Below, one piece after another: positions 1,918 through 60,445 of a stretch of 64,000 nt of DNA. Numbering within the stretch: position 1 is the first letter of the stretch; every line of letters starts with the position of its first letter. The notes beneath the pieces are model-generated. The model saw only the letters and a list, made by a program, of their open reading frames with translations, was not told where the DNA came from and did no database searches. Origin of the DNA: Hormiphora californensis (Eukaryota > Animalia > Ctenophora); the NCBI GenBank assembly GCA_020137815.1, contig CM035360.1:1302001-1366000 (forward strand), in the 5' to 3' direction. Both the position numbers and the translations under genes were made by a program.

Positions 1918-2009
1918 GATCATTTTGTAACCAGCGGGAGGAAGTGTGAGAGAAAATTACTCTGGACAGTGTGTAGTATCATTGATAGCTTACTAAAAAC
2001 ATTTTGAGC

Positions 2010-12700: not shown

Positions 12701-15700
12701 GTGTGTGCGGATAACGTAGCCCCGTCATCTGTAGTCGACTCACACGGTCACCCGCTTTGCCAGACCAAGAAGATCCTCTCAAAACTACCCATTTGTAGCA
12801 AAGCACAACTCAAAACAGATCGGGTGAAGAACTCTCATTTGACATGCCTGACAGAGGAGGAGAAACAGGAACTAAAACTGCCAACATGCCAGCCTAACCA
12901 GGCCTCCAAGAACAGTGTTGACGGTACTAAAGTGTGTCTTGGCCCAGACGGAAGGAGTCCCTCATCCTGTCTTTGGTTGGATCACCTCTATCACGCGGGA
13001 GAGGTCCACACTTCATGTGGACCAGTTCTACCCGTATGTAGCAGCAGTAGTAACACCAATGAGGAGACTATTGGGCATGTAGACTACCGGCCACCAAGGC
13101 TTCCCAGCCAGTGCGGTGGGTTTGTGTTACCGGTGTGTGGTGAGAATACATCACCATCCCAGGTTGTGGATAAAGACGGGAGAAAGCTTTGTCAGGTCAA
13201 GTCTGCGCTTTTGAAGTTGCCAACGTGCAAATCAGAACAGCTTCGATCTCGTAACAAAAACTCGGTTTTAACTTGTCTGACAGATGAAGAGAAGAAGGAG
13301 TTGAAGCTACCAGTCTGTAACAAAATCCAGTCCCCACTAGACAAGAAGGGTAATGCCATTTGTAGGAGCTATCGATACCAAGAAGACTCGGCCGGAAAAT
13401 CTTGCCTATGGTACGAGAGTCTATTTGAAACCCGTCTGAAAAGAAAGACTTGTCAAAAGAAGAGTACGCTATTGGAGCTTCCAATTTGTGGAAAGGAAAC
13501 TGGAGCATCACGTGTCAAAAACTCATCGTTTACGTGTCTAACCGCTGATGAGAAGACCCAAATAACCCTCCCTAACTGCACCAAGGACAAATCGGAGAAT
13601 GACAAATCTGGAAAGAGAGTTTGTCGGAAAACTAATGATACAAAAACCTGTCTCCGGTTTGAAGATGACGTAGATCATAAGCAACCGAAAAAGTGCAGAA
13701 AACCGGTAAAATCCTGCAAAGAAATCCAAGGTGAAGTAGACTGGTGGACGCTCCTGCTGAGGAAACAAAACCGTCGGCAAAATGTCCGAAATGATCTCCT
13801 CATTTCTGTGTTTGACTTTGTCTCCGATGACGAAAAGTCCTGCTTGAAGATTGAGCAAATGGATGAGCTTTTGGAGGAAGTGGAGAAAGTCTGTACACCA
13901 TTTGGACCGGAGTTGGTGATGTATGGTAAGGTGAAGGAGTACGAAGCAACCCATCCCATGAGCCCCAACGCGGTAACCTGGGGTTATGGTGAGGTCTCTA
14001 TCGGAACACGGACCGGCAAGTTTGATCTTCACTCATCTCAAGCAGTTATTTCAGATGCCAAAACAAGGAGATCTCGTGTGGTGAAGAAAGTTACCCAAGC
14101 AGCAGTGAGACCCCTAAAAGGTCAAGTGACTGGGAAGTTTCTTGTCATCGAGCGATACTTTGTATTGACTAAATTCAATCTGAAGTTTGTAAACAGGTAC
14201 AGTTGGGAGCTCCATCTCCTGAGGACATCATCAAAGTTCGCCTTTCCAGGGATTGTTACCTTCAAGAAACTGACCTGGCCATCCAAGTACAGGCATTTCG
14301 GAGGAGTGAAAATTAATGAAAATGTTAAACTTATGAGACAGCGGATACGGTACTGGAGAGCTGATAAACGGAAGACAAATGTTGTAAAAGTTGTTCAAGC
14401 TGTACTAACGGGAAGCACCAAGAATCTGGTGATATACCATTTTGGGGATAGTCTGGGAAACAAAAAACGAGTTCTGGACTACTGGATTTTCAAAGTAACA
14501 ACCTCAGAGATGCATGTTATACAGTCGATGGGAATAAATGACGCCTTATGGAGGGACAAGATCACAGAAACCAAACACAAATGGAGTGTCGGGCATTCAG
14601 TCAAGTATTCGGCACGCCGGATCGTTGGGAAATCTTCAACCGGACGGTGGATGGGATTTGTGAAGTTCGATGAACGGAAAATGAAAGGTGTTCTCAAAAA
14701 GCTATCTAAACACAAAGCAGTCAACATCAAGGTTGATATGGAGGCTTTTGTGGTTATTGGTTTCCAGAAGTCTGGGTCAGACGTCCACACCCGGAAACAC
14801 GCCGAGGCTTTCCAAGAACAGTTTGTAGGACAAACAAGTAAGCAGTCCTACAGAAAGGTTGTCCTGGCTTTATCTCACAATACCGATGAGAAAAAGTGGA
14901 ACAAGTTGACTGTTCTAACGAGGCGAAAGAAAGACTTTGTAATTCATCTGGCGAGGCTTTCCGACAGTAAAATCGATACCAAAACTACAAAACACGTTCA
15001 TCGAAAAGCTCATTTCAAGTTCATTATTCTCCGCAATATTGTCATTGTCCAGACTGCGACGCACAAGGTTGAATCCAAGTACCACAACAAACACTTGGCA
15101 GCAGTTGCTGGAAGCACCGGACTGGTTGACGGTATAGGTCGAGCTGTTACTATTACCCAACACCAACTTCAGACGAGCTCTGATTTCCAGATCCGATACA
15201 AAGTAAAATGCTTTTGTAGACGGAATAGCTTGAAAAAGGCTGAAATCTTTAAGAAGATGGTCCTGGGAGCTGCAGTCAGAAAAAGCTACAAGTCTTCCGG
15301 AAAGATCATTCGCATCAAAATTTCCACGGTGAAACGTGAGCAGAAGATGCAGCTTGGTATGAGGTCTAGAAATGTCTACGTTGCAGTAAAAAAGAGGTCA
15401 AATCAATGGGAAGTGGATGTTAATTTCATTGAAACCAAAATGGAAGTGTTCAAGAGCATTCAACTTGCAGTAACTCAAGGATCTAGAGAAGAACCACGTC
15501 ACAGAGTGAAAGGGTTGATATTCAGAGCTAAAAGGAGGAAACTGCGCCATGGAACGTCCTCATCTCTACTGATAGGCCCTAAAATCCGACAGAGAGTTCT
15601 CGTAACTACAAAGCAAGTTGGAGTCAAGATCTCAAAAAGTGCGGAGATCGATTCATTTGTTGTCACTACTGGTGCAAAGTCGTTGTCTCTGTCGAAAAAA

Positions 15701-18700
15701 GCAAGGGTTTTCATTTTGACGCTTGTAATCACGACTGAGACTGTCTTTAACAAGTTCGAGTTCAGGAAAGTCAGGATTGAGCTAAAAACAGGGCTCGCAA
15801 TAGAAAAAGGGAAGAAGTTCCTCATTACAGGGAGAGCGAGACATTCCCCACTACCACTTCACGGATCAAGGCGAGTGTACGTCGCTAAGCAACGCGTTTC
15901 GGCTGAATTAGAGGAGGTTGTAGCCGGAGCTACCTCAGCTCTAACAACGAAAACCATTAATTTCTTCCAAATCAAAACGGTGCATGATCGAGTCGTTTCG
16001 AAACACCTCACATTTGTAACCAGCAAGTTGTTCTCGGCTGGTGACCAGCGTATAAGAGTGGAACTCCACAAGATCGGTCACAAGAGGTTTTCTGACAAAC
16101 ATCGCGTCACTGACGACAAAAGGAAAGTAATTTATCTGTTTGACCACGCAACAACTAAAGTTGGGTATCACCAGCAGCGTGGAACCGGAAGGTCCATTCA
16201 AAACCGGTTCAAATTTGTTAGACACGACATTCTTGAGATCAGTGGAGCTGGTACTATGATTCAGTACGTCCTCCTTTACAAGGGATCTTTCCAGAAGCGA
16301 GACGGCGGTCTCCTTCTTTTCACTTTCCACTCCAAAGTTGGATATTTCATTGCTAAACACCGGGCAATTAAACTAAAATTGATCACACTGAAACTCTCCA
16401 GTGACGCAAAACAGGACAACACAATGAAACTCATTGCTGTTAACCGACCCAAAGCACTTCTCATAATCCAAGGTGGTCGGAGACATCGTGAAACTAAAAT
16501 CCGACAGCATGTCAGTAAGAAATTTACAAAAGTGTCAATAAAAGTGTCCGAGTCACGAGACATGGGACCATTTGCAGTTGGTAGTCGGATAAAGGACGAC
16601 TCAAAGAAAGTGTGGAAGCTCCAACAGGGCAAGGTCCACGATGCCATGTTTGTTGGACAAAAGATGAAGTTAACCCAACCTGACAGGAGTGTGAAACTGC
16701 GACATAAAACTTCTAAATCTCACACCATCAAGAAACATCTGGGAAGGAACGTGATATACAGAATGAAAATTGTCCACCAGTTGTCTCGACACGTTGCTAA
16801 GATACGGCTGCGTTCAAGGCAGGTTATCGTTACCATGGCAACGTTGGTACCGAGTGGAAGGTTCAAGGAAACATTCAGCTCAATTGAAGCTCTGTCTCTG
16901 AAGACGAGGTTCCATTTAAAGATTATTAGAGGAGTTGCTGTACTCGCTCAGTCCACTAGAACTGACGAAAAGAAGGTGAAAAGATCTAAGCTTGGACTGA
17001 AAATTAAGCGGTTGAGTTCTAGCAAAGGAAAGGAACACAAGTATACGCAAAACGGCAGGACTTTTGTTGAAAAGAGTAGTTTGTTGAGTTTCCTTTCTCG
17101 CCACAAATCTCAAACTGTGCCAAAAACGTTCAGGACCATGTTGATTCGAGATGCATTCTTTATAATCTCTCACCGCAGAAGAAGTCTGGTTACCTTTCAT
17201 CACGTTCACCGAGAATTCTTGGTTACCATGGTAACCACACGAGGCTATCTTAGCTCCCGACCATTGTTTTTCCAAGACTCTGCAAAGCGACTCAGTGGGT
17301 TGATTTTGACTGAAATCCGAGGAGCATACTCTTCATGGCAGCTGACAAAAGGAACAGGTCCGAATCTCCCGGCTACAGATCGATCTCTCACAGCCGCTCA
17401 TCAATTGAAGGTTCTGGCAGTGGTGAGAGTTGTTGGCGAGTCAAAGATGCGGAGTTATGATAGGGCTCTTACCACAATTCGTCATTATACGAAATCGCTT
17501 GTGGTAGCTAAGACTAAAGTGAAGCTATCCGGATCGAGCGAACTTTCAACTGAGTTGTCTGTCACGGCAACGCTTAAAGATGTGTCAACGAGAGCAGTAG
17601 GGAAACAACGAGGGCGAGCGGGAGATGTTTTATCCCAAATTACAACATCAAAAACCAGTAAAGTACCCCGGTCAAAGATTGTCAGTACTCGAGGGAAGAC
17701 TAAGGAACCGGCTGGATACAAATCACTCCGAATGAACTTGGTTATTAAAGTTATGGAAACTGAGATGATCTCAAGGTTGATAGACTCGAAACCAGCTTTA
17801 TCTTCAAGCACTCTGCTGGTGAAGTTTGAACTTGTGGCTGCTTACAAAGCTCTCAAAACATCAAAACAAAAGAGTTCCATAATCAAGGATCCCCTCAAGA
17901 GCATGACAGTGAAAACGTCTCTTGCAAGTGACAGCCACTTTATCTCCCAGCCGTGTCTAAAGTTCACCACTATTGTGCTTCATCGTGATGACTACAGTCC
18001 TGATACCATGCTCCAAACTGGCACCTCCTCCCTTCAACACAGAGAATAAAGAGTTCAGGGAGCTCAGTGAGAGGAGTTGTGGACGAGGAATGAGTCTCTA
18101 CCCAATAGTACCATTCTCTGATGACAGAGAATCGGAGGTTCTACCCCCTTGCAAGGAACCTGTTCCAGATGATGATGATGGTGAAGATGATGAGTGTGAA
18201 GATGGAGATGACGAGGAAGAAAAGTCTAAGAAGGCGGGTAAACCTCCTGCAAAGGGCGGTATGGGCGGATCTGGTATGAGCGGATCTGGTATGGGCGGAT
18301 CTGGAATGGGCGGTACTGTACCAGGAGGTATGGGTTCAAAATCAAAAACTCCACCGCCTCCAAAGAAGTGCAAGAAACGCCGACCCCATTCCCTACCGTC
18401 TCCACCGACCCCGCCGTGCAAACCAAAACCAAGATCTCTTCCACTATGTCTACCCTTCAAAACCCCGAAACTTCCACTTGAATGCGGTAGAATGTTGCCC
18501 GTTTGTACTAGGACTGATCCACCGAACGGAGTGGATGAGAACGGAAACAGAGTGTGCCAAACAAAAGACGGTCTTCTAAAGTTACCAATGTGTAAAGAGC
18601 ACCAAATAGGCTTGAGGAGACTGAAAAACTCAGCTCTCGCTTGTGTAATCCCAGAGGAAAAGGCTCAGCTGACACTCCCCGAGTGTAGGAAGGATCAGTC

Positions 18701-21700
18701 ACCCAGAGCGAAGAACGGGAAACAGGTGTGTTGGAGGGACAATGGATCCAGTAAATCGTGTCTTAGGTTGATCGATATGACATTAACTGAACCGGAGGCC
18801 CCTCCTGAGAACTGCGGACCGGTTCTCCCAACATGTATGGAGGGAATCGATCCTAAAAATGGAATGGATAATACCGGTGTCGTGGTGTGCCAAACAAAAT
18901 CCAAATTGAAGAAACTTCCAGTATGTAAGGAAAACCAAAAGGGTGCAAAGCGAATAAAGAATGGCTTCCTTACATGTCTCACTGGGCCTGAAAAGAACCA
19001 ACTGACCCTACCGGTTTGCAAGAAAGACCAGCACCCTGAAAACAAGACTGGAAAAGTTTGTCGGACACCCGAAGATGATGAGAAATCCTGTCTCTGGCAC
19101 CGAACCATATTCTCCATCCCAGAGTGCAGATTGCCTGACAAGGTCCAGAAACTCTTGGGACCATCTTACGTCCCATACTGTGAAGCTGGCGAGGTACCTT
19201 CCTGTAAAATACCGGGCGATCACATCTTCATGGGACCACAATTTAGTTTCCTCCCCGATTGTCCTGATAGAAGCATTCTTCCACCTCCACCTCCACCACC
19301 TCCCTGCAGACCGGCGGCTGCAATGCCTAACGCAAAGAACGAGAAACTACCCGTCTGCAAACCAACTTGTAGAGATGCAGCTGCCATGGTAACGCCGAAA
19401 AACAAAAGTCTGCCTGTTTATGAGAAGAAACTAAAATGTCGGGCTGTAACTGAGAAAGTTACAGACAAGAACAAGGAATGGCCAATCTGTGCTGTAAAGA
19501 AGGTCCACTGCCGACCTAGGAGATCATATCACCATGGTTACGAAGAAAAGCAACCGCCAATCCAACCAAAAGATACCGTTGTTGCAAAGATTAGGTCCTG
19601 TACCAAAGCAGAAGTTAAGCTAATCATCACAATGACAAAGGATAACGAGGAGAAACGGTGTCAGAAGGTCGAGTACGAGTGCCACCCTAAAACACCATAC
19701 AAACATCCTGAGCTATTTGCCGGTCTGGAGAAGGCATTCCACTATTGTCACAGATCAGATCGGTCTCATTACCAGGGATTGTTCCGGAGACGTTGCAGTA
19801 GAGGAATCATGGTAACCATGGATACGACTGATACACACATTGACAGTTTGGGTGATAGCGTTGCTGAAAAGAAGATGATGGCCCATATTGTGAGGATAAA
19901 GAGGCTCTACCAGGGGACTGGAAAAGTAACTGTGTCAAGATGGATTTCAGCCAGCACGAAAATGAAAACTCTCCAAAAACGAAAGCCAGTACTAAAACTA
20001 AACACCAAGTACCAAGCAGGCTTTAGTGTCGTTGAGGTTGTTCAGCTGGGCTCAACTAAACTAACTGGAATCAAAAAGGCAGTATCAGTAGACTTCCTCC
20101 TGATCAGTTCTGGAGACAAGGTTACCCCGATAGTCATGGCAACCGTGTCAGTCCAGAGAGATGAAACGACCAGAGGACACAATTTGAAGCTGGCAATGAC
20201 ATCACACCTCCGGAGATTGATTCGACATGACCAAATGACCAAGTATCTCATCAGTGAAAATGAATTCAAGTACGCTTTGAGCAGGGAGATCATCACCCTT
20301 GGAATATTATCAGACTTAGAGGAGAGTTTTGTGGTGACAACCAAAATCAAACACGATAGCTACCAAACCAGGGGTGTTCAAAGAGCGATAAGTGTTAGAA
20401 AGATTGGACCAGTTACAACGCTCAAGGTTACTAAATACCGTGAGATTAAATTTGCCACTGGGACTAGAAGACGAGATGAGGTGAAACAGAAGAGTGTCAC
20501 TTTGCTAGTTTCAGTGAGTTCATACAGCTTGGATTTCCGAGGGTTTAGAAAGTTTGCAAAGCAAGACACTACCATCAAGATTATTTCAACTGATCCGGAA
20601 CCGAAACTGACATCAGAACCTTTGCATCCCTTCCTTTTGGATCAATCCCACGGCCTCCAAGAATTAGGATCCACCAAGCAACAACGAGTAACAGTTTCCT
20701 ATCACGGCGTCTCAACCTGTGGATACATCCTTCACGATCAGGCGGACTTCCTGGTCGTCCGGTACCAGTTTCTAAATGAACCGCAGTACGTTGTGGGTGG
20801 TCTGGGTGAGGAGGGACTGCACTTCACAACAGAGTCCAGAGAACGGAGAACATATGTGACGAGAGTGCAGAATGTTGCTCACCTCTCCTGTTGGAACCCC
20901 TTGTTTGTGGGACTGAAAGCGGGTTCAGTGGCACCTTGTAGCTACAGTCCAGACGACCCCTACCACCCATCACATTGAGCTCACAATAATCCACCACTCA
21001 TCGCTCACTCTAACGCCCATTATTCGTGTTCACCCTCATCTCAAGCCTTCTCACGGCATCCTTCACCGTTCACATCGAGTTGAGGTGTCGGTGTCATCTG
21101 ACACCCTCCCTGAGTTCCCCCAGCCGGGTCAAGTTGCAATCCTGTCTGTCCGTCCCAGAAGTGTTGTTCTGAGGTCTGTTCGTGTGTACCGTTCACCGTA
21201 TTCGGTGTTCCGGGTAAAAAATATTGCTCGCGGGGAGTTGAAACCAGATCAGGTAGAGTTAAATGGACATACGGTAAGTGTTTTCGCTCGAATGAAAATG
21301 ACTTGTGATGTGATCAGACCGGGTTCACAAACATTCTTCCTAATTAGAGGACAAGAAAGGAGATTTGATCGATGAGTACAGGTCTAAGTCCGAGGGGCCA
21401 GGTCCCTCTGACCTCTACCACGTCAAACAATTCCTCTTTTTGAAACAGACTCGCATCAGAGTGCACACTATCGCTCCAGTAATCTCCTGTCAAAGAGTCT
21501 TCCCCTTCCAGAAAGACCTGCTACACTCCAAAGCTCGAACATCTGCCGAGTCTATCGTGAAAGTCGGCCGAGTTGAATCCTCAAAATCAGCGGAAATTGA
21601 CAGCTTCGTTGTTGAAACGAAAGCGAAAGATTCGTCGCTCAAAGTTGTCGTCTACATCCGCGATCAATCCTGGGTAAAAAGATACACCGGAGCATCATCA

Positions 21701-24700
21701 AAGATTCATCCCCAGGTTATGAAACTCCATCTCCAGGCAACCTTTACCAAGACTCACAAGATCAAGTACCTTTATCTTAGGCAAAGATACATAACACCGA
21801 TTATGGCCGTTGAAAAGACTCAATCTTTAAAACGGTTATCGTCTGGCAAAGCACTTTTGAGACTTCGAGGAAGGATCAGCAAAGAGGAGGCAGAATTCAA
21901 CACAGTGGTTTAAATTTGATATCTTCGGGTCACTTGAAAGTACTCTTGTTCTCCGTCATTCCTCAAGAGGCTCAGCTAGAAAACGACGGATTTGTTTCTG
22001 GGAAATTCACAATCGTAAAACCTGACGATAAGAGCATTCAAATTCTTGGACACTCTTTTGGAAGGAATCACAAAGTGAAGTCCTTTGTCTACTTCACGGC
22101 GAAATTACACAAAATCAGAGCACTTGAGCGTCATATTGTAAGAAAAATCGATGCTCACACCAAATCCATTGAGAAACCAAGACCGTGGCTAACTGGTCGT
22201 TGGAAGGTGAATCGAATCTTATAGATTTACCTCCACCATGTCCCAAAAAGAGGGAAAGATTTTAGTATTTGTCAATGGGGCAATGAGACGCACTTTTACG
22301 ACTAAAGGTGGCCTAAAGCTTGGAAAACTGGTCAGAAAAACCATCGATTCGCTATCATCGAAAGAGTCTAGTTCCCACACTCTATCCTTGAAGTCATCCC
22401 TCGATACATTCTCCTGGATAGATAAATCTTGGGTAAGGTATAATGTGGGAGAAGCAATTAAAACCTCCTACAAACGTTCCAAAGTTGATACGACAATAAA
22501 AACTAAGGAAGCTGCGGAGTCGGACATCTTTGTGACTGAAGGAAGTATCAAAGACAATGGTCGAGACATGTTCAGACTGCTGCGGAGAAACATTTTTACG
22601 ACAGTGAACCACAAGGGAGTCTCAAAACTTTTCAAAGTGGACTTCATCAACAAAGGATTAGCCTCAAAAACATCCAAGAGTCATAAGATGAAACACATCA
22701 ACGCAATAGTAAACGTTCTCTTCAAGGATCTTCACCAGAAACACCACTTTGTTTTCAGACGACTCTCTGTTGCCATGGGGATTACAGTTACTAAAGCTCA
22801 GCTCGCAGGGATGACTTCTAAACGAGGCATACTCCAGGTTACCGATACGATAACTCACAGCGAGAGGGTGATAACAAAACACAGTCAGCTAGTCGAGGTT
22901 ATCCAATGGAGAGCTTCTGGAAATGTTAACTTCGACAAACTTGTTCGGCAAAAAGTAACGAAAACATCGTCCGAAAAGGAAAACAAGAAGATGATAACAT
23001 ACTTTGGAGAGCAGAATCTAAGAGCAAAACCAGAGACCCTGGACAAATTTGGAAAGGCAATCACAGGTGGAAAGACCATTCATCGTCAAAAGTATCTCCT
23101 CGAGTTTGCATTTTGGGTGTTTTCAGAGCGAAGCGGATCTTTCACTCAACTGACCCAGTCAACTGGAGCGTTCCATGTGCAGAGGGTGCACTCAAAAGAC
23201 TTTATAGCACTTCGTGGAGCTTTCTTTTACAGAGGCGCAGCCCGGAAAACTCAAGTTTCGCTAGAAGTTAGTCTTGTGCTAGTAGGGTATAGTATACAAC
23301 TTGATACATACCCCTACGATCTTCCCACGACTTTTATCACGCGTAAACCAGGCCATACAGTTGAAAGTATCCGAATGCGATTGATGACTAAGTTTAGTCT
23401 CAAAGATAAGGGTCTAATAGCGTTCTTCGAGCACCGAGGTAAAATGACCTACAACCAACATAGGATAGTTTACAAGTTGCTACAAAGCAAGAGGGAACAG
23501 GACAGCTTTGTTGTCACTACAAAGATTTTCGACGAAAGTTCCAAAATGTTTGGAAAACAACGTGGAAGAGCCGGCTGGGAAATGCTGGTAGGAACGAAAA
23601 TTGTTCCCAAGAAGCTCGGGCCACACAAGATTGTAGGATTCCGAACTAAAACTTTATCGCCTCCGGGACACAAGTTCGTTTTCAAGCACATTGTAGACGT
23701 TACTCCAAACATTATCTTGGACAGAACGATTGCCGTGAAACCAGACGCAAAAACCAGCTCGAAGTTTTGGTCTCCAAATCCAATCCCATCTCTGGGGGAA
23801 ACAAAACCGACGCTTATTTTTGGATCAACTGGACTGGTACCTAGGGACGTCTACCGGATAAAAACTGGCACTGAAATTATCCTGAGTGGAAAATCAAGGG
23901 CATGCAAGGCTATAAGATTTGACCAGAAAGCCCCATTGACCATCCCACCGTGGAGAAACATCGGGTGCAAAGGTCCGAGACAAGTAATGGTAACTCAGAA
24001 GAGCGTAGCGAGATCAAGTAAGCTGTGCCGATGTCTGAGGCGACCAAAAAGTGAAGACTCGCCAGCAGATGAGGCGGTTTTCTCAGTTTTACCAGAGTTG
24101 AGTTGTTCAAGTTTGGATTCCCAACTAGACATGAAATGTCGAGAGCTCCCATGCACACCACCCTGTGCAAAAGGTTGTGACACGTGCACCCGCGGGTACT
24201 GTAATGTTAATGGGTGCTATCAGAAGTTGTGTAGCTCACAGTCGGTGAGAGATGGGACGTGTGATGACTCAAAATGTAATGAGAAACTTGTCGTGCAGGG
24301 AAAATGTAAAAATTTGTCACCTAGTGAGACCTGCGTGAGTAGGATGTGCTCAGCAGATAACAACACCTGCTACAAAAGAATAAGAATGAAGTGTGCCAGA
24401 CCTGATAGCAGCGGAAAATGTAACCAGGACAAACCGTGCTCTGCAATTGAAATCTATGCAGGTAAATGTGTATCTGTCGAATGTAACAAACTTCCAGACG
24501 GTTGTCTGAACTCCAAAGTGAAAGGATACGAAAGCTGGAACACGCCAGTCCCGAGTGAAAGATGCAGAGGTTCCACGGAGGAAGAGTTTTGTGCCAGAGA
24601 CGGCAGTTCCAAGTCATGTAACCGTGGTTACTGCACGAATGCTGCGTGTTACCAGCGAATCTGCTCCCAGAACGAACTAGACAACGGAGATTGCAATGAC

Positions 24701-39700: not shown

Positions 39701-42700
39701 GTTTGGGGCACATGGAAGGTTACACTCCATACTCGATATACACTGGAGAGTCCTTACCATCGCCCTGACAGGCAGTGGTATGAGGTCTAGTAAAGTAAAA
39801 GAGAGAAGGATAAGGAGGGTGGAGTCTGTTGTTGGTGTTAATCACTCACTACCTGTGGCTCATACTATCAAGTACACCTGGGACCACACACTCCAAACTC
39901 ACTCTACGGACCACTGGGTACAACGTAGAGTTCCAAGCGGGGGAAGTGAAATGTTTGACAGTAGAGAACATCATGATCTCGCTTTCTTTGTGTTCACGGA
40001 AAGGAAGGTCTGGTTCACGGCATTTGTTGACAATTACCGGGAGATCCGGGTGATACGACTTGAAATGAAGGAGTACATTTCACGGGATCAGGTGGAGGGG
40101 GTGAGACTGATATACAGACTACCCGCCATTAGACGCCACGCTGAGGCGATCAACCGAGACCTAGTGATGAGCGGATACGATAAGCGATCTGGTGTTTTAA
40201 CACCACTTCCTACGACTCAACGGAAGAAATCAAATGGACACTCACTCTCAATGAGAGGGAATGTCGTCACAGTAACCCACCCCAGCCTGAGGCAAAAATT
40301 CAGAAGGATGGCTGAGGTAAAACTAGACACAAAGTTCTCAAAGTCCATCATTATTCACAAGTTGAGCCAGGAGATAGCTGATGAACCCATGTGGGTGAGT
40401 GTGAATTCTGCCAAGATAACGTCAAAACGACCTTATGAACGGCAGAGGATCCTCCTTCTCTACAAGGTCAACAGGGTAACAAACCTGAGGATTATCAGAG
40501 TAGTGAGAACAGAAGCAGAACCAAGGCACAAGGTCCGCGAGGGTCCAAAGATAAAGCTCTCATATCGATACACTACAAACTTCGAGGCGAGTGGTGTGAG
40601 GTTGATAAGCCGGGACTCCGGAAGAGATCTGAAATCTGTCGTGAAAGCCGTCCTTTATGCCGCTTCAGAAGTTGAAGAGGTAAATCTGATCAAACGACTT
40701 CTCATCGCTAAAGCAGTAATTGGAATTGACGTAACAATCGTTATGAGACTCAAGACAAGTGCCCAAAAGACACCCACCGATATAGTTTCTAGCAGTAAAG
40801 CTCAGAAAGTGGTTCTAAAAATTGGAGCATTTGAAAAGAATATTGTCAAGGAACACACGATCAAATTTAATGTGGGGACATCACAGGAACATCAAATGAT
40901 GATCACGTTTAGGATGTCACATGGACGGGATACCAGAACAAATACCCATCTAGATGCTAGGTCAAGGGTGGTCCTAGTTGGCAAGGAGTTGTTCACAAAG
41001 AGGGTGGTTCTCACACAGTCTAAACTTTGGAAAGAGAGATATGCCGGTCTCTGGAGATTTGGGGGAATGACAACTCAAACCACGGCAAACGGTAACGAGA
41101 AGCTATCCAAGTTTGTACTCTGGAAAATTGAAATAACTAAAACAAAGAGGTCCAACGGCCACAACTTGAACCTATTCCTTTCTCTGAAACTGAGGAAAAC
41201 AAGTCACCATGCCTCACTCCTACGAGCATTCTCTACTTCTATCGACACCAAAACCTCTGCAAAACACAAGGAAATCAAGATCACCTCCGGTGTTGAACAC
41301 CAAAGCGAGCTCTCAGTTACATCTTCAATGAACGATGTCTCCATTAAAATGGAAGTGGAAACGAAGGGCCGAGCGGTTTTGATCGGGATAAAAAGTAGTG
41401 TAGAAACTGTTGTCAAGGTTACAGTTGCTACGATGAGTACCCGAGTCAAACAGTCATCAGGCCATGTGGTGAAGTTGGTTGGTACACTGAGTTCCGGTGC
41501 TGCGACTAAAGTTCTGGGAGAGGGTCGTTGGATAACCGCAGCTGGAGATCTATCTGCTAAAGCAATCTCCCACAATGTTTCCATCCACCAGGGTATCCTA
41601 GCAACGAGACAGCTGGCAATCGCCCAAACCCGAGAACTCCATCTCAAGAGGGTTGTTGGATGGAAGGGAGCCAGGGTGCAGGGGTTGGTTGACGCTGTCT
41701 GCTTCACAGCCTACCATACCACTCCCAGAAGGAAGCAGATGAGGGAGAGGAGGAGGTTGAGTTATTTGGGCAGTGCCTTCTTCTACACCACTGTAGAACA
41801 CCAGCAGCTCTACAACTATAACTACCACAAAATACCTCTCATGTGGGAGAAGAAGAGAGAACTGGCACAACACGAGTATTTCTTCCTGGTGAAGGAAGAT
41901 AAAATGGTTGAGTACGAGTATGTGTTGTCAGTGGAACACCGTTGTTCTGGACTCACTGTTAGCATTGTGGAAGTGGAGTTCTTTGTTACCGAGGAAACGG
42001 CTACCGTTGGTTACCATGGTTACAACATGCGACATGTTGTTGCCAGGCAGCCTGGTGTAAAGATTCTAAAGGGCAGCATGGTAAACTCAGGACTGGAACC
42101 TTCCAAAGAGTTCAAGGCTATCTTGATCAGGAAGACTATTGTTCCCTCCGTTGCCATGGTAAAGAGATTGCTCCGCTCACAAGGTTCAACACAGATCACA
42201 CCGATACAGCCAGTTCCAATCAAGGTACTTGTGGTACTGGGCAACAAGTTTCAGAGAGCGGTTGTCAAACTCAAACGGCACCCACAGATAACATTTACCC
42301 CTTCCACTTCGGAACACAACCGTGCAACGCTGATTCTAACATCTGATCTGAGGACAACAGAGGGACTTCTCGGTCACCATAGCAACATAGTCTCCAGAAC
42401 TCCAAGACGGACTGTTTCAACCACAAAAGTGGACCATCGAATCACAGCTTTGAAGACAGAAAACGTCGACCAATTATCAGTCACCACCACGATCAAAGAT
42501 TCCACAATTAAAGTTTTGGTACTCGTCACAACAGTCCTTGGGCCTTCCGACGGTAACATTGGACATGTGCGGTTAAAAAGTTTTGATATCCATGATTTCC
42601 CAGTCATTGGAAAAAATATCAACGGACACAAGATTGTGATTATTTCCAGTGGTCTTTGGCGCTCTAACTTCGTCTCGTACGGCGTTACCAAGGGAACGGT

Positions 42701-45700
42701 CACTGCTAATGATTCAGAACGATCCCATATCAAGGCTGTAACGAGACATGTGATAAGAACAGTAATTACCAAGGCTGCACAACAGTTCCTCGCACTACCA
42801 GTGAGAACTCTCGCAGTTGTTCGAATTTGTTGGGTTGCCCAGACAACTGTCACTGGAAACAGAGAGCAAGAGTCAAGTTATCGGCCGAGGAAGTTGGTTG
42901 AACCAATGATCAGGATGACAAGAGATAAGAAATTCGGTCCGGTTACAATGAAGGTGATCAGTGAACACCAGGAATTGGTTTTAAAAACCGGGAATCGGAA
43001 AATCACAGATGAAGAGGAAAAGACGATGGTGGTCAAGATTGTCATAGTTAGACACGCCGTTCTGAAGGGCAACAAAGGTACTAACATGAGCTTTACGTAT
43101 AGGCAAAGGGTCTCACATAGCAACAGAAGTGTGATAAGGGTTAAAACCTCGCTCGCTGTGGTAGGCGAAATAGTAGGTTATCGGCTCTTGAAGCACTCCA
43201 GTTATACGTGGCCTAAGTTTGGGCAAACCTCTAAAGAGGGAAACATTCACACCGTTTCTTATACCGGCTCAAGAGTGGCATTTGTTTCCATGGCAACATC
43301 TGGAAGGCTCCACGTGCCACTAAGACAACAGGCCACTGCAGTAGCTCGGAAGGTGGACAATCGAGTCAAAATATCGAACTCAGCTGAAAGGGATATGTTT
43401 GTGGTGACAACTAAAATGAAGACAAGCACCAGAAAGCCCTTCCGCCTGTTTGATATCACTCTAAGAGGAAGGAGCTACTTGGCGACCAATGGAAAACTGT
43501 CCCTTTGGAAGATGGAGATACACCGCCTCGCTGACAGGATTATCATAAGAAACGAAGCGAAGAGGGTTATCGATATTCAAACAATCTTCAATGCTTTTGG
43601 GTACACCAGAATGCGGTACAGCGTAGCAAAACTACGGGTAAAAACGAAACCACTAAGGAAGATCCGACCATTTGTAGAATCAGCCAAGAGTTTGAAATCA
43701 GGCTCTTTAGTAGTACTTGGCAAAGGAATAATCAAGGAACGTGGCCCCGGAGTTACCATTGCATCAATTTGGAATCAAACTAACTTGGTCAGTTACCATG
43801 GTGATATCTAAGGAGCATTCTAGACGGAAGATCACAGTTACCAAAGACAAGATCACCGTACCAGCGAGCGTGAAGTACTTTGCCAGTCACCATCATACCA
43901 GGGTACAAATTGGCCTGCCAGTTGCTATAGAAACAAAACCCCAACACCGAACTCTTTCTTCAATGGAGGGAAAGTACCATGGTCTTCCATACCACATCTT
44001 CTCCACCCGGCCTGTATCTGTGATTCAGCACGTGGAGATAACACGGCGGATGAGAGCCCACTTCCTCACCTCAAAACAGTACGCTAGTGGCAGTGAGAGG
44101 AAGGGAATGAAGCGGTTCTTCTACCGTGAACACCCCCGACTGAGGGTAGTTGCGGAGTGGGAGGGAATCCTAACTCCAGTCATGAAATGGGAAATGTCGC
44201 GGGGAAAAATCCATGCTCTACCGACAACTGGTCGAGATTTACAGCCTGGACACACGGTAACATTGGAACGGAAGAGGATTGTCTACTATCTGGTGAGAAC
44301 ACTTCAACACTCAAAAACGCTGGGATCTGCACAAAATGAAACAAAGTTCACTCAGTTTAGAGTTGTGTTTAAACTCGTCATCAAGACTAGAGATCAACCT
44401 GCTATGGGATTCGTGACGTCCATCAAAGATGACTCCAAATCCATCTTTAGATTACAGATGTGGAGGGCCTGGAGTACAGAAGTTGTGGAAGGAAAGTATG
44501 CTACAAAGCTCGTTCCGAGGACCAACCCAAAACCGCGGTCAAAGAGGTCAGACAGCCACAAGCTGACAGCATTTGTGGAGTTGCGAGACAACTCTGCTAC
44601 AGAATTAGGACGCCGAACAGCCACATCCTTCCCTACACTCAGTACAAAACACCGTGTAACCCCAGTTCTTTATGCCGCATCAGAAAGATCAGATGCAACA
44701 TCTACAGTTGCCTACCCGCAGCCGGACACCCGAGTTGACACGGATCCTCACCATCACATGGCAACGAAGCATTTCCATGTGGCGGTTCTGCGGGGAGAGA
44801 TGCAGATCTGTGGAATGTACCAAAGAGTCTCAGTGAGTCGGTGGGTCAAACTATCCAACACTCCGGGAAGACATGATGGAGAACTCAGGACGCATCACCT
44901 TAAAAAGACAGCCCGACAAGCGGGTGACTTGGAGAAAGTGTATATTTGTGCAGATATGAAGAGGGCGACATTGAAAAGAGTTCAATTCAAACTTGCCGAG
45001 CCCGATTTCAAAACAATTTCTGGACCTCAGATGACTCTGGTATTGGTAACTGTGATAAAGATGCGGAAATATCTTGCGATGAAACATCTCGGTGACACGC
45101 ACAGCCTTGTATCTGGTAAAACAGTACAAGTATTGAGAAGAACAATTAAAAATCCAACCAGCAAGGGGACAGTGAGTTTGTCGGTGACAACTTTAGCAGC
45201 TCACCAAATGAGAAAAGTTAACAAAATATTACGAACTGTTTCAAGGGGATACGCATACCACAAAACACATGTCAGCTGGAGGAAAGAAACACGTCCTTTC
45301 ATGGATAAAGAAGACGGAAAGGTGCTAGAAAAGCATACCATCAAATCTTTTGTCTCCGCGGAGGTTTCTATCAATAAACCTGGGCTTCATCTCGTCCTCA
45401 CATCACCTGTAACACTGAAGACCAAATCTGGTATAATGGATCGAGCTCACATTCAACTTACAACTTCCATGGAGATGGTATCGGAGGTGACAGTACAACT
45501 GAGAATGAGAGACGACAGTCCCAAAGTTTCAGGATTCTCCCGCCTCTCCGTAACGAAGAGATCTTACTGTCTGGTTGGAGTGGACCCAACTGAAATAGGT
45601 AGATGGGAAATGAGACTCCGAGATGATATAAACGATGCACCCAAGATAGGCTTTGTGATGGAGCTTAAATCTGTCATAGAAGTACAAAGATACCGTCTCC

Positions 45701-48700
45701 ACCTTTACCGAGAGGTTACCATGGACACCGAATTCCATGTTCGTGTTCTCCCAAAGATCAAGTACACCTTTGTTGCTGACACGCAAATATACCGTGGAAG
45801 TGACAGTTTTACTGAGATGATAACATACAGAGACACAAGACATACCCTCTCTATTGAGACCGTCGGAGCTCGCATATGTAGCATCTCCTTCATAAAACTT
45901 GTCAAGGGTCGTGGAGAGAAAGTCGCTCCTTCATCAACAAGCTGTGAATTCAAAGCACTTGTCAAGAAGCTGGTTTACATTGTCGGTAACGGTAACATCC
46001 AGGTCACTGGGAAAGCTCCTAAAATTACCTTAATAACCAAACTTAGCTTCGCTCTGTCACGTCTGGGAGCCACTCGACTATCTATTGACCACCACATTTT
46101 ACGGGTAACAGGTCAAGGTATTCAACCCCGACGAATTCCACCTCTAATAACCCTGACATTCCACGAACAAGGTCCATCTTCAATTGTCGAGAGCGGTAAC
46201 CGGAAACGGCTACCAGTCAAACTAAAGATCTCCTTAGCACAGACTCGCGGGTATACTGTACAAATACCAACCGTAACAGTTGTACGGCGTCTCCCGCTAG
46301 TACCAAGTTCACGTGAAGCAGAGGGACACACAAGACCTTCCTCAAAGATACTTCTCACAAGAAACAGCGTGGCATCGCTAGTTTTGAGGAAAACTCGGCC
46401 TAACGAAATCAAGACTGCGGTTACCACTCGGTTTGTTAAGTACGATATCTCTCAGATATCCGCCGATCTGACTGCATCTCTAAGCATAACTACCAGTGCA
46501 AAAGATGAGTCAATCAAGGTTCGAAGGATTCAAAAAGTCAACATATCGAGGGCAACTCGTGCTACTACTCAAGGAAAGACCAATAAAAGAATAATGACCA
46601 TTATCGTAAAAACAAGCAAAGAAAAGGGCCATGGAATAATTATTCAAGACCCAAAGTTTTCTAATTCCCTTCACCACACATTCTCCATCAGCCATCGCCA
46701 GTTACCCCGGCAGCACTACACTCGGATTCATATTGTACAACTAATAAGGATGAGAGTGACTGACAGAAAGAGTGCACCAACTCCCAGATCCTCTGTCACC
46801 TCTTCAAATCTGCTCCAGGTGAGACACGGCAAGAAAGTGTTTACAGGGGTTACCGTTATTGTATGCCATCGAAAACCAAAATGTCACCCTCCTGGGTTAC
46901 CAAGACAACGCGGTGAAGGGTTACCAAGGCAACGCGGTGAAGGAAATAGTGGTGAAAATACAGATGATAAAAGATATGAAGGTGATGATAATAGTCTTCC
47001 AGATTGTGGGCCCGAAGCTAAACGTAGCTGTGATAAAAGACACGATCCTGACTGTGACCAGGGTGGCGAGTTGGAATTGGAAGAATCAAGACCACCACAC
47101 GGACAAAAATCCCATCACGATCCCAGACACAGTAATGTAGGACCAGGCTGCACGGCATCATCGGCTCAAGCTATCATCTTCCATTGGCGTCCTACCAACA
47201 TCAAATCAGTGACAACTGGGCATACCCTCCGGTACATTGGGGGACAACACGATGACATGGACAAAACTGGGACATCCATGAAGAGCTTTTCACCTGACAA
47301 AACGGTCAAGTTGTCAGTTCGTCCGGGTATCCCCACTCCTCCAATTAAGTTGAGTGATGTGGGATTGGTACCCATGGTAACCACCATCACAACTCACGTT
47401 GAACCGAGGATCCTTGTAGGAAATCTGAAACTCACCGTAGTTGACAAGGTTAGATTTACTGATAGACAGACTCGTGTCAGGATTGTGGCCAGGGGATACC
47501 TGGTATTGTCATCAACTGAAAATCCAGGACCAAAACATACCGTTATCATTGAGGTTATTCGACAGATGTTCCGTGTTGGAATTGGAAAAGACTCCCTTCA
47601 ACTACCAACTAAGCTAACTTCAGCTGTTATTGCCCATCCTCAAATCACAAGATACCAGGGCATGCTCGCTGCATCCCTTGTTGTCATGACAACGGCAAAG
47701 GATACAAAGTACGTGGTTAAAACTGCTTACAGATGGGACTACAACTGAGCAGAAACACCTGGTGAGAAGGTTAGTGATGAGGAAACGTGTTCTCTCCTTG
47801 AAGATAGCCGTGAAAGTTCAGGTACCAGAGCTGTACTTTGCTGAACCGGAAATCATTTCTTCCGTTAAAACTCGTCATTATGGACTGAGTGTTGCCATGG
47901 AGACGAACATGCTTCGATTCGATCTACTGACAAAGACCAACAAACCATTCCTTATTGGTAGGACTAAGAAGAACGAAATGGTACCTTACATTGTTTCAAA
48001 TACCGAGCTGAAGACTTTCCGACATAAGAAGTTCACCGGTGCCCGAGGACGACACGCTCTGCTACTAACTGTGAGCCTTCAGACTAAGAAGGTTTCACAT
48101 CGAGAGATCGGAAGAGTGAAGGGAATTGGCACCGACCACAAATGGAAACCTACTGCCGTGATAGTGTCAAAAGCTGATGTGATTCAAGGGCACGATACTT
48201 CTTCCCCAACGGATGCTCTCTCGACTAAAGCATTGGCGAGCTTCACCCCTAAGCACCTTTCTTCTAATCACAAGTGGTACCAGGGTATGGAGGTTTATCA
48301 CGAGGTTTATCACGAGGTAACCCCTCAAGTAAAACGGACCTCGTACCACGACATAGGGATGAGAGTTCTTGGCACCAAAGAAGGCACCAGAAAATGGGAG
48401 TTACCTGTATTTGTAGCTTCGTCCGCAAAGAAGCTCAGGCACACTGTCCAGCTAACTGCTGGAGTCAGATCAAAGGTTGAATCAGTAAGAAAAGCTCGGG
48501 TTCTCCAACTGACCAGTGTGAATCTCAGAGCTAAGATTAAGAAACATGATCCAAGGATAAAACTGCAGTCCGTGACAGAAAGAGATTCCTTCGTTGTAAG
48601 AACAAGGGCAAAGGATGACTCTTACAAGGTCACTACGTACATTACAACGCTGTTCTTGTACGAGCCAAACGTCAAAACAACCGAAAAGCGAACGGCAAAG

Positions 48701-53138: not shown

Positions 53139-57958
<4,820 letters not shown>

Positions 57959-58583
57959 GATTGTATGAATTGTAGTGTGAAATAATGTAAATTTAGAGTT
58001 AAAAAGCCATGAAGGTTTTTATATGACACAGTCAAAATCAATTAATCTCTTCAGCTCATATCAAACACTGTGATTGTTGTTTTCGTGATGACTCGGCCCG
58101 GGCCATACAACATTTCCGGTTTCATAGTTTGATAGCAGAATAGCCACAAGGCCCAATGCCCCAAGCACCAAAGGGCCTATGAAGAGAACCAAGAGGCTAA
58201 GAAATTGAAGTCGAAAACTCCTTTTTTTACCCATCTCAAGCTCTTAAGCCCACCCCCACTTCAACCCGTCTTAAGCCCGTCTGACTACGTTCCAAGCCTG
58301 CCTTGGATCTAGACGACGGCGGAACGACTCCCAGAGACAGGAGACAAACAATTTTAAAAAACGACGACGCGACTTCCAGATAATAACGTTTGCCGAGCAA
58401 TTTTTAAATTTTGAGTCCGCGTGGGGAGCCAAAATTAACGTAGCGCGCGGGAAAATGATGTATAAATGGCTATTTCATGAGCGCGTTGGAGTTTTTAGAA
58501 CGCGCGTCCGGGCCGGACATTTGATTTTCAGAAAAAGTTTCTCCAAAAAAAAACTCCACCTCCCATCGCAATGTGTGATTTTA

Positions 58584-59292
58584 CTTCAACAGAGAACTAT
58601 CCAAATCAGAGTTCACAGACGCGATGTGCCTCCGGTATGGCTTTGAAATCAACGGCCAGTTCTCTGAATGTGTATGTGGAAAACAGAATGGAGCAGACCA
58701 TGCCCTGAGCTGTAGCACTGGCGGGTATACTATCCTGCGGCACAACGAGATTAGAGATACCCTTGCAGATATTATTACCCATGCAGGATACAAGGGTGTT
58801 GAAATTGAGAAAGTGTTGCAGCCAGTTAACCCAGATGACTACCCCCGGAGTGTCAATACAGCACCTGATGCTCGCAGTGACGTGTATGCTATTGGGTTAT
58901 GGAGAGGACTACAGGGGGCCCACGTGGACGTTGCAGTTTTTCATCCCACTGCACCCAGTTACAGAGGAAAAGACCCAAAATCTCTGTATAAAATGAATGA
59001 AAGTCGGAAGAAGCGTGATTACCAACAACGAATCAGAGAGTCGGAGAGAGGGGCTTTCACCCCGTTCGTGATGGCTACCTCCGGTGGTGCCGGACCTGAG
59101 GCTGAAAGACTAATCAAAAAGCTAGCATCACGCATCTCAACTAAACACAAGGACAAATACGCTGAGGTGATTAATTTCTTGAGAACGCGGATACGGTTCT
59201 GTCTCCTCAGAAGTACCTTGGTCTCACTGAGGGGCACGAGGAAGAAGTTCACGACTCCACTTCCCATTGCAATGTGTGATTTTAATGACTGA
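58584..59292 (+). mobile_element. 5'-truncated non-LTR retrotransposon ORF end (zinc knuckle plus restriction-like endonuclease, CRE-clade-like)
   Basis: LSKSEFTDAMCLRYG...CVCG......HALSCSTGGY...RHNEIRD...RSDV...VDV....PTAPSY...E..KK..Y...FTPFV.ATSG..G.EA. No RT domain present, no introns. Confidence 0.75.
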
Positions 59293-60371: not shown

Positions 60372-60445
60372 ATTAGATTTGTCTTTCTGATGTACAGTCT
60401 TGTACAGACCTCTAACTCTTTAACTCTCTAACTAGTGGTGCAGCC

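Follow-up and report, generated by a model that had tools for sequence, protein, structure and literature searches.

A motif-marked module of about 100 residues, probably in 26 copies, in a three-level tandem array of the ctenophore Hormiphora californensis

The stretch of H. californensis DNA analysed here, termed the window (64,000 nucleotides; GenBank assembly GCA_020137815.1, contig CM035360.1, positions 1,302,001 to 1,366,000), contains a recurring protein motif which probably marks 26 copies of an undescribed module of ~100 residues, arranged as a three-level tandem array within one giant basic gene, with a secreted structural or adhesive product predicted. The three levels are the ~100-aa module, units of ~305-330 aa and a super-repeat of ~5.7 kb present in six copies (Table 1). 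From its sequence the gene product appears to be a very basic orphan protein of ~1.8 MDa, so far from Pleurobrachia-like ctenophores only.

In detail, the motif reads (E/D)-x-D-S-F-V-V-T-T-x-(I/A)-K-D-x-S-x-K. Across the 16,689 aa of the main + strand ORFs, a relaxed regular expression for it matches 19 times, compared with 0.76 +/- 0.93 (maximum 7) in 200 residue shuffles. A profile HMM seeded with these 19 sites recovered seven non-seed copies at 8.4-54 bits, the top match in reversed or locally shuffled control ORFs being 3.5 bits. Iterations 1-3 converge on 26 copies between 15359 and 48739, while a 27th match (22808-23185) that appeared in iteration 4 only was left out of the count. An earlier note on this DNA had listed 22 sites and proposed that the basic regions hold over 20 diverged copies of a single element. 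The recurrence is real, as all 22 sites, even the degenerate variants at 17552, 37197 and 48584, lie inside profile-supported copies, and the HMM count confirms the number of copies, with four beyond that list (B0, C4, C5 and the extra core of super-repeat 5).

The element present in all copies is ~100 aa long, rather than the 310-330 aa previously proposed, and consists of a His, 51 aa, DSFVVTT, 46 aa and a basic/His site, with fixed spacing between these landmarks. The upstream landmark is a Gly-His ~51 aa before the motif, which had not been listed and which is a better landmark than the downstream His. Its column holds His in 21 of 26 rows of one alignment and 20 of 26 of another, and the distance from this His to the motif Phe is 50-53 aa in 20/26 copies (sd 0.8). 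From the Phe to a basic column, whose residue directly precedes His-Lys-Met-Lys, there are 43-47 aa in 22/26 copies (sd 0.9). The downstream His-x-(M/I/V)-Lys noted earlier is also present, with His in that column in 15 of the 26 copies, ~50 residues past the motif Asp and ~35 past the motif end. A basic cluster, Ser-Lys-Ser-His-Lys-Met-Lys, is conserved at the unit border. The fixed spacing, taken by itself, would imply a folded module.

The six-fold super-repeat of four units had not been noted earlier. The order within the super-repeat is units A, B and C, a Cys-rich spacer and unit D, the spacer being found in copies 1-3 and lacking in copy 4. BLASTP gives offsets of ~5660, 11623 and 16876 nt, with same-position units 25-76% identical; super-repeat 0 matches super-repeat 3 (15623-17722 with 33195-35300, E 5.5e-10) and super-repeat 1 matches super-repeat 2 (22220-24775 with 27882-30383, 46% identity over 862 aa). 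Units group by super-repeat position both by BLASTP and in a 26-core tree, on which the A/B/C/D labels need 7 changes versus 15.8 when shuffled (0/200 shuffles as low). The spacing of 920-980 nt reported earlier describes the steps from A to B and from B to C (915-984 nt) but not the other steps (1164-3348 nt), which are longer because Cys-rich spacers and extra sequence intervene. Units have a pI of ~10.4, 17-19% K+R, ~4% His, ~0.1-0.2% Cys, 5-6% Gly and 1.8-2.5% Pro, with the hydrophobic residues V, I, L, F, Y, W and M summing to 33-36%, and the Cys-rich spacers contain 13.8-14.2% Cys. The additional Cys-rich module in the D2-A3 interval has 88-92% nucleotide identity to 24260-24379 and 29914-30044, and the two copies of the second-type Cys-rich region match each other by BLASTP (12656-13447 with 18456-19142, 39% identity, E 7e-40).

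Table 1. Features of the repeat array and its coding region (window coordinates).
Feature	Position	Strand	Details
Giant coding region	3847-51873	+	~16,000 codons; holds all 26 cores
Cys-rich region, sparser, second type	12290-13720	+	second copy ~18050-19600
Super-repeat 0	15359-17710	+	A0 15359-15811, B0 16262-16720, C0 17219-17710; HMM 86-110 bits
Core D0	20001-20477	+	HMM 119 bits; BLASTP against D1 E 1.7e-14
Super-repeat 1	21362-26129	+	A1 21362-21730, B1 22217-22681, C1 23183-23659, D1 25647-26129; HMM
Cys-rich spacer, super-repeat 1	24026-25451	+	
Super-repeat 2	26991-31697	+	A2 26991-27404, B2 27864-28346, C2 28830-29324, D2 31221-31697; HMM
Cys-rich spacer, super-repeat 2	29751-31022	+	62 Cys in 424 aa
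Extra Cys-rich module, D2-A3 interval	32043-32417	+	18 Cys in 125 aa
Super-repeat 3	32949-37352	+	A3 32949-33377, B3 33819-34304, C3 34791-35285, D3 36870-37352; HMM
Cys-rich spacer, super-repeat 3	35643-36671	+	
Super-repeat 4	38202-41462	+	A4 38202-38621, B4 39072-39545, C4 40071-40544, D4 40983-41462; HMM
Super-repeat 5 with tail	42162-48739	+	A5 42162-42623, B5 43068-43553, C5 44077-44556, D5 46144-46626; HMM
Extra core, super-repeat 5	44857-45330	+	HMM
Last core, tail	48287-48739	+	HMM
Motif sites, first ten of 19	15650, 20322, 21599, 22523, 23501, 25971, 27258, 28185, 29169, 31542	+	regular expression
Motif sites, other nine	33222, 34146, 35127, 38475, 39390, 41307, 42471, 43392, 46477	+	regular expression
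A-unit island	32905-33250	+	~340 nt, sharp edges; four A units, 89-93% pairwise nucleotide identity
A-unit island, other copies	21265-21629, 26925-27304, 38159-38507	+	
B-unit island	34134-34370	+	95.8% to 22511-22747; 109-nt piece common with 28302-28410
C-unit island	35051-35199	+	94.6-97.3% to 23425-23573 and 29093-29241
Acidic C-terminal region	50458-51873	+	short 'ESYxLQ' repeats; pI 5.9; closes the reading frame

Similarity between units of different types was assessed with flank-only HMMs, from which the motif columns were removed and one unit-type pair was held out. The upstream-flank HMM placed 14/56 held-out copies above control and the downstream-flank HMM 2/56, so that, away from the motif, different unit types resemble each other only weakly. 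This weak cross-type similarity supports the proposal of one 310-330-aa domain in part only. That each such period is a single beta-rich domain, with the basic region made of more than 20 diverged copies, appears unlikely. Such a domain is consistent with the 305-331-aa period of 14 of the 25 successive core-to-core steps, with a 127-column in-register alignment of the B and C units (hhalign P 0.008) and with an identity to a Pleurobrachia bachei protein (see below) that is equally high between and within cores. However, the 150-175 aa between cores are similar only among same-position units, the bodies of different types not being significantly alike (B-body against C-body, hhalign P 0.039), and with three-sequence profiles the cross-type hhalign alignment covers just 18-48 columns around the motif. 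Iterated HMMs of the full cores and of the 102-aa module never grew past the cores and found no copy outside 15.3-48.8 kb. For the 312-aa unit AlphaFold2 produced no fold (11-row alignment, mean pLDDT 31), the 165-aa core reaching a mean pLDDT of 49 with a 26-row alignment. Hydrophobic autocorrelation showed no lag-2 or lag-3/4 periodicity, the missing lag-2 signal also weighing against the single-domain reading.

It is possible, if doubtful, that the ~310-aa unit comprises three modules of ~103 aa, each starting with a His-x-hydrophobic-Lys strand and only the third carrying DSFVVTT, in which case the elementary domain would be Ig/FN3-sized. The His-to-His distance within cores is ~100 aa, and 8/11 units have a His-x-hydrophobic site near the midpoint (0.42-0.58) of the interval bounded by the flanking His landmarks, although units of the same type share ancestry and these eight are not independent. 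Such sites fall inside this 16% window in 14/34 cases and recur every ~96-126 aa in copies 4-5. When the unit is cut in three, the parts align in register, starting at position 1 (P 0.038, 0.030 and 0.019; reversed controls 0.29-0.91) and the core aligns with the C-body over 110 columns (P 0.0015), but all of these P-values are weak and cuts set at His sites favour in-register alignment. In addition, six iterations of the 102-aa HMM yielded no extra modules above control, and Pfam gave no Ig, FN3 or cadherin match.

Units A, B and C of super-repeats 1-4 cannot be treated as independent copies, since they share motif-centred islands, 109-358 nt long and 88-98% identical in nucleotide sequence, beside which third codon positions are saturated; the flanks of the A-unit islands have ~35-45% identity. 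The islands are confined to same-type units of copies 1-4, with none across types. Third positions in the conserved block are 72-78% identical versus 84-90% at positions 1 and 2, and in the diverged parts ~0.25-0.35 versus 0.35-0.63 elsewhere in the codon. No RNA-structure signal was detected in the A-unit island (fold z -1.03; no Rfam match). Sharp edges and centring on the motif point to short-tract gene conversion. Conversion is also part of another reading, namely that the shared element is a linear motif of ~20-25 aa (a processing, cross-linking or docking site) set at intervals in unrelated basic filler and spread in this way. Although the islands fall exactly on the motif regions, cross-type similarity is confined mostly to the motif columns and the downstream flank does not pass when unit types are held out, this is quite unlikely given that landmark distances across ~100 aa stay constant to within one residue in units where the sequence between landmarks is saturated, that the upstream flank passes the same test in a quarter of cases, and that the islands do not extend beyond units of one type in copies 1-4. 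In the modular array favoured here, growth likely occurred by block duplication, and the motif regions were likely kept alike by selection together with short-tract gene conversion.

The sole relative found in searches of 1.84 billion representatives and of 5.8 billion clusters is an unnamed gene-model fragment of 1684 aa from P. bachei (sb|3460725|; EukProt EP00116_P000463; here P0002). It matches window positions 43744-46845 with 84.7% identity over 1036 aa and the preceding B5 unit with 76%, shares the cores, reaching 350 bits with the 26-core profile. The identity is even, at 0.81-0.86 in cores and 0.86-0.88 in the stretches between or beside them, which suggests that the inter-core parts are constrained. 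P0002 belongs to another species and represents less than a tenth of the giant gene. Its start is a duplicated stretch, and at its end an identical 16-aa repeat recurs to which tblastn detected no counterpart in the window. The earlier note could assign the module to no known family, and the family searches agree. Pfam gave no family in 14 stretches covering almost all of the main ORFs (ten at E<=0.01, three at E<=0.1 within the largest ORF, and P0002 as the 14th query) and nothing in three Cys-rich stretches scanned separately (E<=1), with only sub-threshold chance matches to DUF1344 (16 bits), Vps23_core (19 bits) and DUF3511 (17 bits). Searching PDB with a profile of the 26-core alignment returned 0 matches at E<=1, and the ESM Atlas yielded no usable match.

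In the window as assembled, the giant coding region appears as 15 stop-to-stop ORFs spread over three frames, with ~14 breaks of the frame; the longest of these ORFs is open over 5807 aa (26388-43808). The breaks are single extra bases which are absent from short-read contigs of other runs. All 19 of the single-base differences applied, which are the one-base rows among those listed for 17000-51873, with an alternative placement at 47735 left out and 31 more rows lying beyond the listing, are an extra base in the window, and removing them merges the ORFs into 9890-21372, 22211-43808, 43732-49529 and 49513-51873. Contigs of X5, an independent sample, lack all 19; in run X1 part of them are at half depth, and one haplotype may thus truly have frame breaks. 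P0002 is uninterrupted across the break at ~43740-43800. A decaying pseudogene or assembly artefact, with repeats of no present function, would fit the frame breaks, the half-depth bases and the low 'recognition' score in the ESM Atlas (1317). It is nevertheless extremely improbable in view of the X5 contigs and the long frames that return, the 5807-aa frame open in the window itself, the codon-position asymmetry, the 85% protein identity of the P. bachei fragment and the RNA-Seq-labelled contigs on the ORF. These contigs, from two seawater runs, map to many parts of 17.8-51.5 kb, with none on 52.0-58.0 kb, and give a hint of transcription. Three of them cross a frame break with one gap each; two gaps place the missing base (17993 and 47738), and the third lies near 22211-22221, with no listed row placing the base. 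Within the ORF they show no skipping joint, the only joints being three between opposite strands. None of the RNA runs from the organism itself contained the stretch, and run X10 shared almost no words with it.

Titin, obscurin and twitchin are megadalton proteins in which modules of ~100 aa form higher-order super-repeats. The ctenophore protein is similar in that its units are related by super-repeat position but differs in its Cys-rich spacers between modules and its extreme basicity, and Pfam detected no I-set, Ig, fn3 or kinase domain in the scanned stretches. An Ig/FN3 array thus had no support at the sequence level (no Pfam match; no PDB profile match at E<=1). The giant secretory silk proteins of the Balbiani rings of Chironomus are basic products of a giant exon with hierarchical tandem repeats, alternating Cys-bearing and Cys-poor segments, and repeats homogenised by conversion. 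The gene described here likewise has hierarchical tandem repeats that evolve in concert within a giant uninterrupted exon, with alternating Cys segments and a basic product, whereas Balbiani-ring repeat units are tens of residues long compared with ~310, and taxon and tissue differ.

In profilaggrin, basic and His-rich units of ~324 aa follow an S100 domain in tandem and are encoded by one large exon, and filaggrin is low-complexity and disordered. By analogy, the product could be a polyprotein cut at the basic unit borders into basic His-rich pieces of ~310 aa. Unit size (305-330 aa), pI, His content, the conserved border cluster and the resemblance to profilaggrin units would agree with such processing, but the units are not low-complexity, being 33-36% hydrophobic, neither S100 nor any other Pfam domain was found, and Cys-rich spacers break up the array, making it very unlikely. 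An S100-fused protein of the profilaggrin type was not supported (no EF-hand or S100 match in the scanned stretches; hydrophobic and Gly content as above), nor was a gel-forming mucin with CysD spacers (low Pro in the units; no VWD, TIL or mucin Pfam match there).

For the secreted modular protein that we favour, the Cys-rich spacers may form disulfide knots or cross-links and the product would act as an extracellular fibre, matrix or glue. A more specific role, in which a secretory cell type peculiar to ctenophores would carry the protein as its main structural or adhesive cargo, with colloblast glue or filament as the boldest candidate, triplets of the new ~100-aa module as building blocks and disulfide-knot spacers cross-linking on release, is decidedly unlikely at present. 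No signal peptide was seen, there being no hydrophobic stretch after the first ATG of the frame (3979), although the window may not contain the true N-terminus. At the other end of the protein, the acidic C-terminal region includes a 123-nt tandem copy which is 97.7% identical.

Along the forward strand of the window, very long stop-to-stop ORFs follow one another in three frames, and neighbouring ones abut or overlap in a pattern of frameshifts rather than of introns; beyond 52 kb the G+C content is lower and no long ORF is found. Short-read contigs from two DNA runs of different samples were compared with the window over 17.0-37.0 kb, and those of one run also over 44.0-64.0 kb. At the frame breaks, single bases of the window are missing from the contigs, the positions tabulated being among the differences listed, with 12 and 19 more beyond those. 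Every one-base difference among those listed in 17000-51873 is an insertion in the window, and none lies in a homopolymer. In silico deletion of the 19 extra bases (47738 being taken and its alternative 47735 left) merges the ORFs into the frames given in the table, and the junctions which remain are either outside the compared stretch or among the differences beyond those listed. Several of the extra bases stand at about half depth in sequencing run X1, so that one haplotype may truly carry them and its frame breaks be real. The breaks at 17993-26465 and 47735-50456 have the look of consensus errors or, alternatively, of a single haplotype carrying frameshifts.

The ORF running in from the window start encodes a very acidic protein (pI 4.05) with runs rich in Asp and Trp, a stretch rich in Pro and Thr, and the site Arg-Gly-Lys-Arg. 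It is without a Pfam match and may belong to the giant gene as an upstream exon or be a gene of its own. At its C-terminal end the giant frame also turns acidic, with short repeats around 'ESYxLQ', a region which includes a 123-nt tandem copy.

The earlier note had described 22 sites of a motif of the type (E/D)-x-D-S-F-V-V-T-T-K-x-K-D-x-S-x-K, interpreted as more than 20 diverged copies of one probably beta-rich domain of ~310-330 aa. The motif is real, as a relaxed pattern gives 19 sites, at the positions then reported, against 0.76 +/- 0.93 in 200 shuffles. An HMM built from these 19 seeds found seven additional copies (8.4-54 bits), the best score among reversed and locally shuffled ORFs being 3.5 bits, and iteration settled at 26 copies, hereafter cores. 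All 22 reported sites are among them and four copies are new, which upholds the estimate of more than 20. A match at 22808-23185 in the fourth iteration was treated as drift and left outside the 26, and an HMM of a 102-aa module gave no copies beyond these in six iterations.

When the ORF pieces are compared among themselves by BLASTP, the matches are offset by ~5660, 11623 and 16876 nt, indicating a super-repeat of ~5.7 kb. Each copy of it (numbered 0 to 5) consists of three units (A, B and C) followed by a spacer and a fourth unit (D), the units being ~305-330 aa long and the motif-to-motif distance 915-984 nt for A, B and C. In copies 1-3 the spacer is 340-475 aa long with ~14% Cys, copy 0 has a sparser Cys-rich type that is found again at 12.3-13.7 kb, and copies 4 and 5 are without a spacer. 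The sparser region of copy 0 also has Gly/Met/Ser low-complexity runs and a poly-Pro run. When the unit labels are placed on a maximum-likelihood tree of the 26 cores, 7 changes are enough to explain them, and shuffled labels require 15.8 (0 of 200 shuffles being as low); the C units form one group (support 78/85). Finer relations in this tree are unsafe, as many of its branches are very long.

The extent of what all copies share is considerably smaller than a unit. Units at the same position of the super-repeat are homologous over their whole length (BLASTP E 1e-8 to 0), whereas between three-sequence profiles of different unit types the alignment is restricted to 18-48 columns around the motif (P 3e-6, 2e-4 and 2e-3). 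A held-out test was also made in which the motif columns were removed and two unit types withheld, with 14 cores per test; HMMs of the upstream flank placed 1, 4, 3 and 6 of the 14 above controls, and those of the downstream flank 2, 0, 0 and 0. The 150-175-aa bodies between the cores have no significant likeness across unit types (P 0.039). The earlier interpretation is therefore partly supported: a shared motif element stands in 26 copies, but a single domain of 310-330 aa does not follow from bodies that are not significantly alike across types and flank tests that lie mostly at control level. Landmarks to either side of the motif nevertheless stay at a nearly constant distance from it. A His lies 50-53 residues before the motif Phe in 20 of the 26 copies (sd 0.8), and the basic residue before a downstream His-Lys-Met-Lys lies 43-47 residues past it in 22 (sd 0.9). 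As this spacing is kept without indels even though the sequence between the landmarks has diverged to 10-20% identity, the shared element would be a structured module of ~100 aa and not a bare linear motif.

A finer reading, with three modules of ~103 aa in each unit, is suggested by a further periodicity and is to be taken as a lead, not a result. In super-repeat copies 4-5, His-x-hydrophobic-Lys sites occur every ~96-126 aa. Of 11 units, 8 have such a site about halfway from one flanking landmark to the other, the thirds of a unit align in register (P 0.038, 0.030 and 0.019, against 0.29-0.91 for reversed controls), and core and C body align as well (P 0.0015). However, the cuts for the thirds were set at the His sites themselves, the units are related to one another and the module HMM gave no new copies. 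The alignment of core and C body was also the sole support for the body as a degenerate core, which was not adopted.

With regard to fold, AlphaFold2 gave a mean pLDDT of 31 for unit B of copy 3 (11 rows) and 49 for one core (26 rows), both models being of low confidence. The units are not low-complexity and are strongly basic (pI ~10.4, K+R 17-19%), with ~4% His, 33-36% hydrophobic residues and 1.8-2.5% Pro. Their hydrophobic autocorrelation is flat at lag 2, lending no support to beta strands, and negative at lag 4 (z -4.0), which speaks against amphipathic helices.

Paralogous copies are more alike at codon positions 1 and 2 than at position 3. Identity to the Pleurobrachia bachei protein discussed below is even, being 0.81-0.86 in the cores and 0.86-0.88 between or beside them, so that the bodies are as constrained as the cores. 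Third positions across the array are saturated (0.25-0.35 identity), and within this saturated array lie islands with sharp edges, 109-358 nt in length, whose nucleotide identity is 88-98%. An island of ~340 nt, common to the A units of copies 1-4, ends at the motif, and further islands are found at B and C motifs and within Cys-rich spacers. An RNA element in the A island was rejected, its fold z being -1.03 and Rfam giving no match. The simplest reading of the islands would be short-tract gene conversion limited to parts that selection keeps alike enough to pair. With such conversion, units A, B and C of super-repeats 1-4 cannot be counted as independent evidence for the motif. The locus would be a clear case in nature of conversion islands retained within an otherwise saturated tandem array.

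Features of the window (coordinates in nt)
Feature	Position	Strand	Remark
Acidic ORF	3-1946	+	Open at window start
Chain of very long ORFs	3847-51873	+	Three frames
Longest ORF	26388-43808	+	5807 aa
Single bases missing from contigs at frame breaks	17993, 20919, 21905, 21990, 24752, 24860, 24951, 25073, 26372, 26446, 26465, 47735/47738, 49121, 49161, 49201, 49421, 50396, 50407, 50456		Among the differences listed
ORFs after deletion of 19 bases	9890-21372, 22211-43808, 43732-49529, 49513-51873
Motif cores	15359-48739		26 copies
Gly/Met/Ser low-complexity runs and poly-Pro run of copy 0	18261-18330 and ~19260-19290	+
A island	21265-21629, 26925-27304, 32905-33268, 38159-38507	+	Nucleotide identity
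Acidic C-terminal end	50458-51873	+	'ESYxLQ' repeats
123-nt tandem copy	50609-50783 vs 50732-50906		97.7% identity
PF00102 ORF	54639-55055	+	E 7e-18
High-copy repeats	58008-62676
CAAACACAAAG loose ends	34324, 36207, 47939, 48381, 50458, 51520, 58706		Runs X7, X8

The gene is nearly absent from gene sets. Three A-B-C copies searched as a profile against 1.84 billion representative proteins gave one true relative (E 5e-25), a 1684-aa gene-model fragment of P. bachei which is unnamed (P0002; EukProt EP00116_Pleurobrachia_bachei_P000463); a second match, P0003, is false and due to low complexity. P0002 has 84.7% identity to window 43744-46845 over 1036 aa and is continuous across the frame break near 43.75 kb; this places the window in a ctenophore closely related to Pleurobrachia. 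It was again the only match of the 26-core profile among 5.8 billion clusters at longer lengths. Homologous-protein searches with residues 1-1750 of 32967-38219 (at near lengths) and with the Cys-rich and D region gave none, and in metagenome contigs one A-B-C copy as query gave 66 pattern matches, none of them confirmed. The giant ORF stretches have no match in Pfam, profile search of PDB sequences gave none and the ESM Atlas none that was usable, in agreement with the earlier note, which could assign the domain to no known family. P0002 itself opens with a duplicated stretch of ~190 aa (residues 1-383), and its end (~1396-1684) is a long series of identical 16-aa repeats that gave no tblastn match in the window; these terminal repeats look like assembly or gene-model artefacts of the P. 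bachei draft genome.

Ctenophores occupy a key position in early animal evolution, and much of what is special in their cell biology depends on genes without relatives elsewhere. The protein encoded here would rank among the largest of animals outside the titin group, and the locus represents a new module family within a known architecture, that of the giant hierarchical-repeat protein. It is possible, if clearly short of probable, that the product is a secreted or extracellular structural protein (fibre, matrix or glue). This reading draws on the megadalton modular array, on the alternation of basic units free of Cys with Cys-dense spacers of a type that makes disulfide knots, and on an overall resemblance to giant proteins of secretions and matrices. 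Against a secreted product, no signal peptide was seen in the window; the N-terminus may lie upstream, where the acidic ORF runs off the edge. A colloblast product is a candidate, as the boldest version of the structural reading. The colloblast adhesive is still termed unknown in the available portion of one study (bioRxiv 10.1101/2020.06.27.175059), and BLAST of colloblast candidates against known adhesives gave no strong homology according to excerpts of another (PMC6278862). The gene is not described in the accessible parts of the literature on colloblast adhesives and granule proteomes, P. bachei gene number and ctenophore giant genes. The locus is a concrete candidate for a ctenophore-specific material, and its importance for ctenophore biology would be high if the gene were tied to a cell type. 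Should its function be mundane, the value lies mainly in a corrected annotation and gene model and in a new, orphan domain family.

There is a hint, not proof, of transcription of the giant ORF. Two seawater runs carry the label metagenomic RNA-Seq, which is a guess and not established; their contigs (150-470 nt, 95-100% alike) match many parts of 17.8-51.5 kb. None lies on 52.0-58.0 kb, and elsewhere they cover only the high-copy repeats at 58.6-63.3 kb. Three of them cross frame breaks with one gap each; for two the missing base is listed (17993 and 47738), while none of the differences listed fixes the position of the third gap, near 22211-22221. No joints skipping sequence within the ORF were seen in the RNA-labelled contigs, the only joints there being three between opposite strands. 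None of the RNA runs recorded for the organism itself contained the stretch, and run X10 shares next to no words with it. In the seawater runs X7 and X8, contigs that end at unrelated places often have a short tail in common, CAAACACAAAG or its complement, which most likely comes from a library adapter or primer and not from biology.

Downstream of the giant gene, an exon-like ORF matches positions 127-221 of the 234 in the profile for the catalytic domain of protein-tyrosine phosphatases (PF00102) and probably belongs to a neighbouring gene. The stretch at 58008-62676 consists of high-copy repeats, probably transposable elements: the summed word depth of run X5 is 3,000-420,000 in four of its seven depth bins, against ~400-700 over the giant gene, 7095 of 8441 contigs fit two places, and the RNA-labelled runs also have contigs there.
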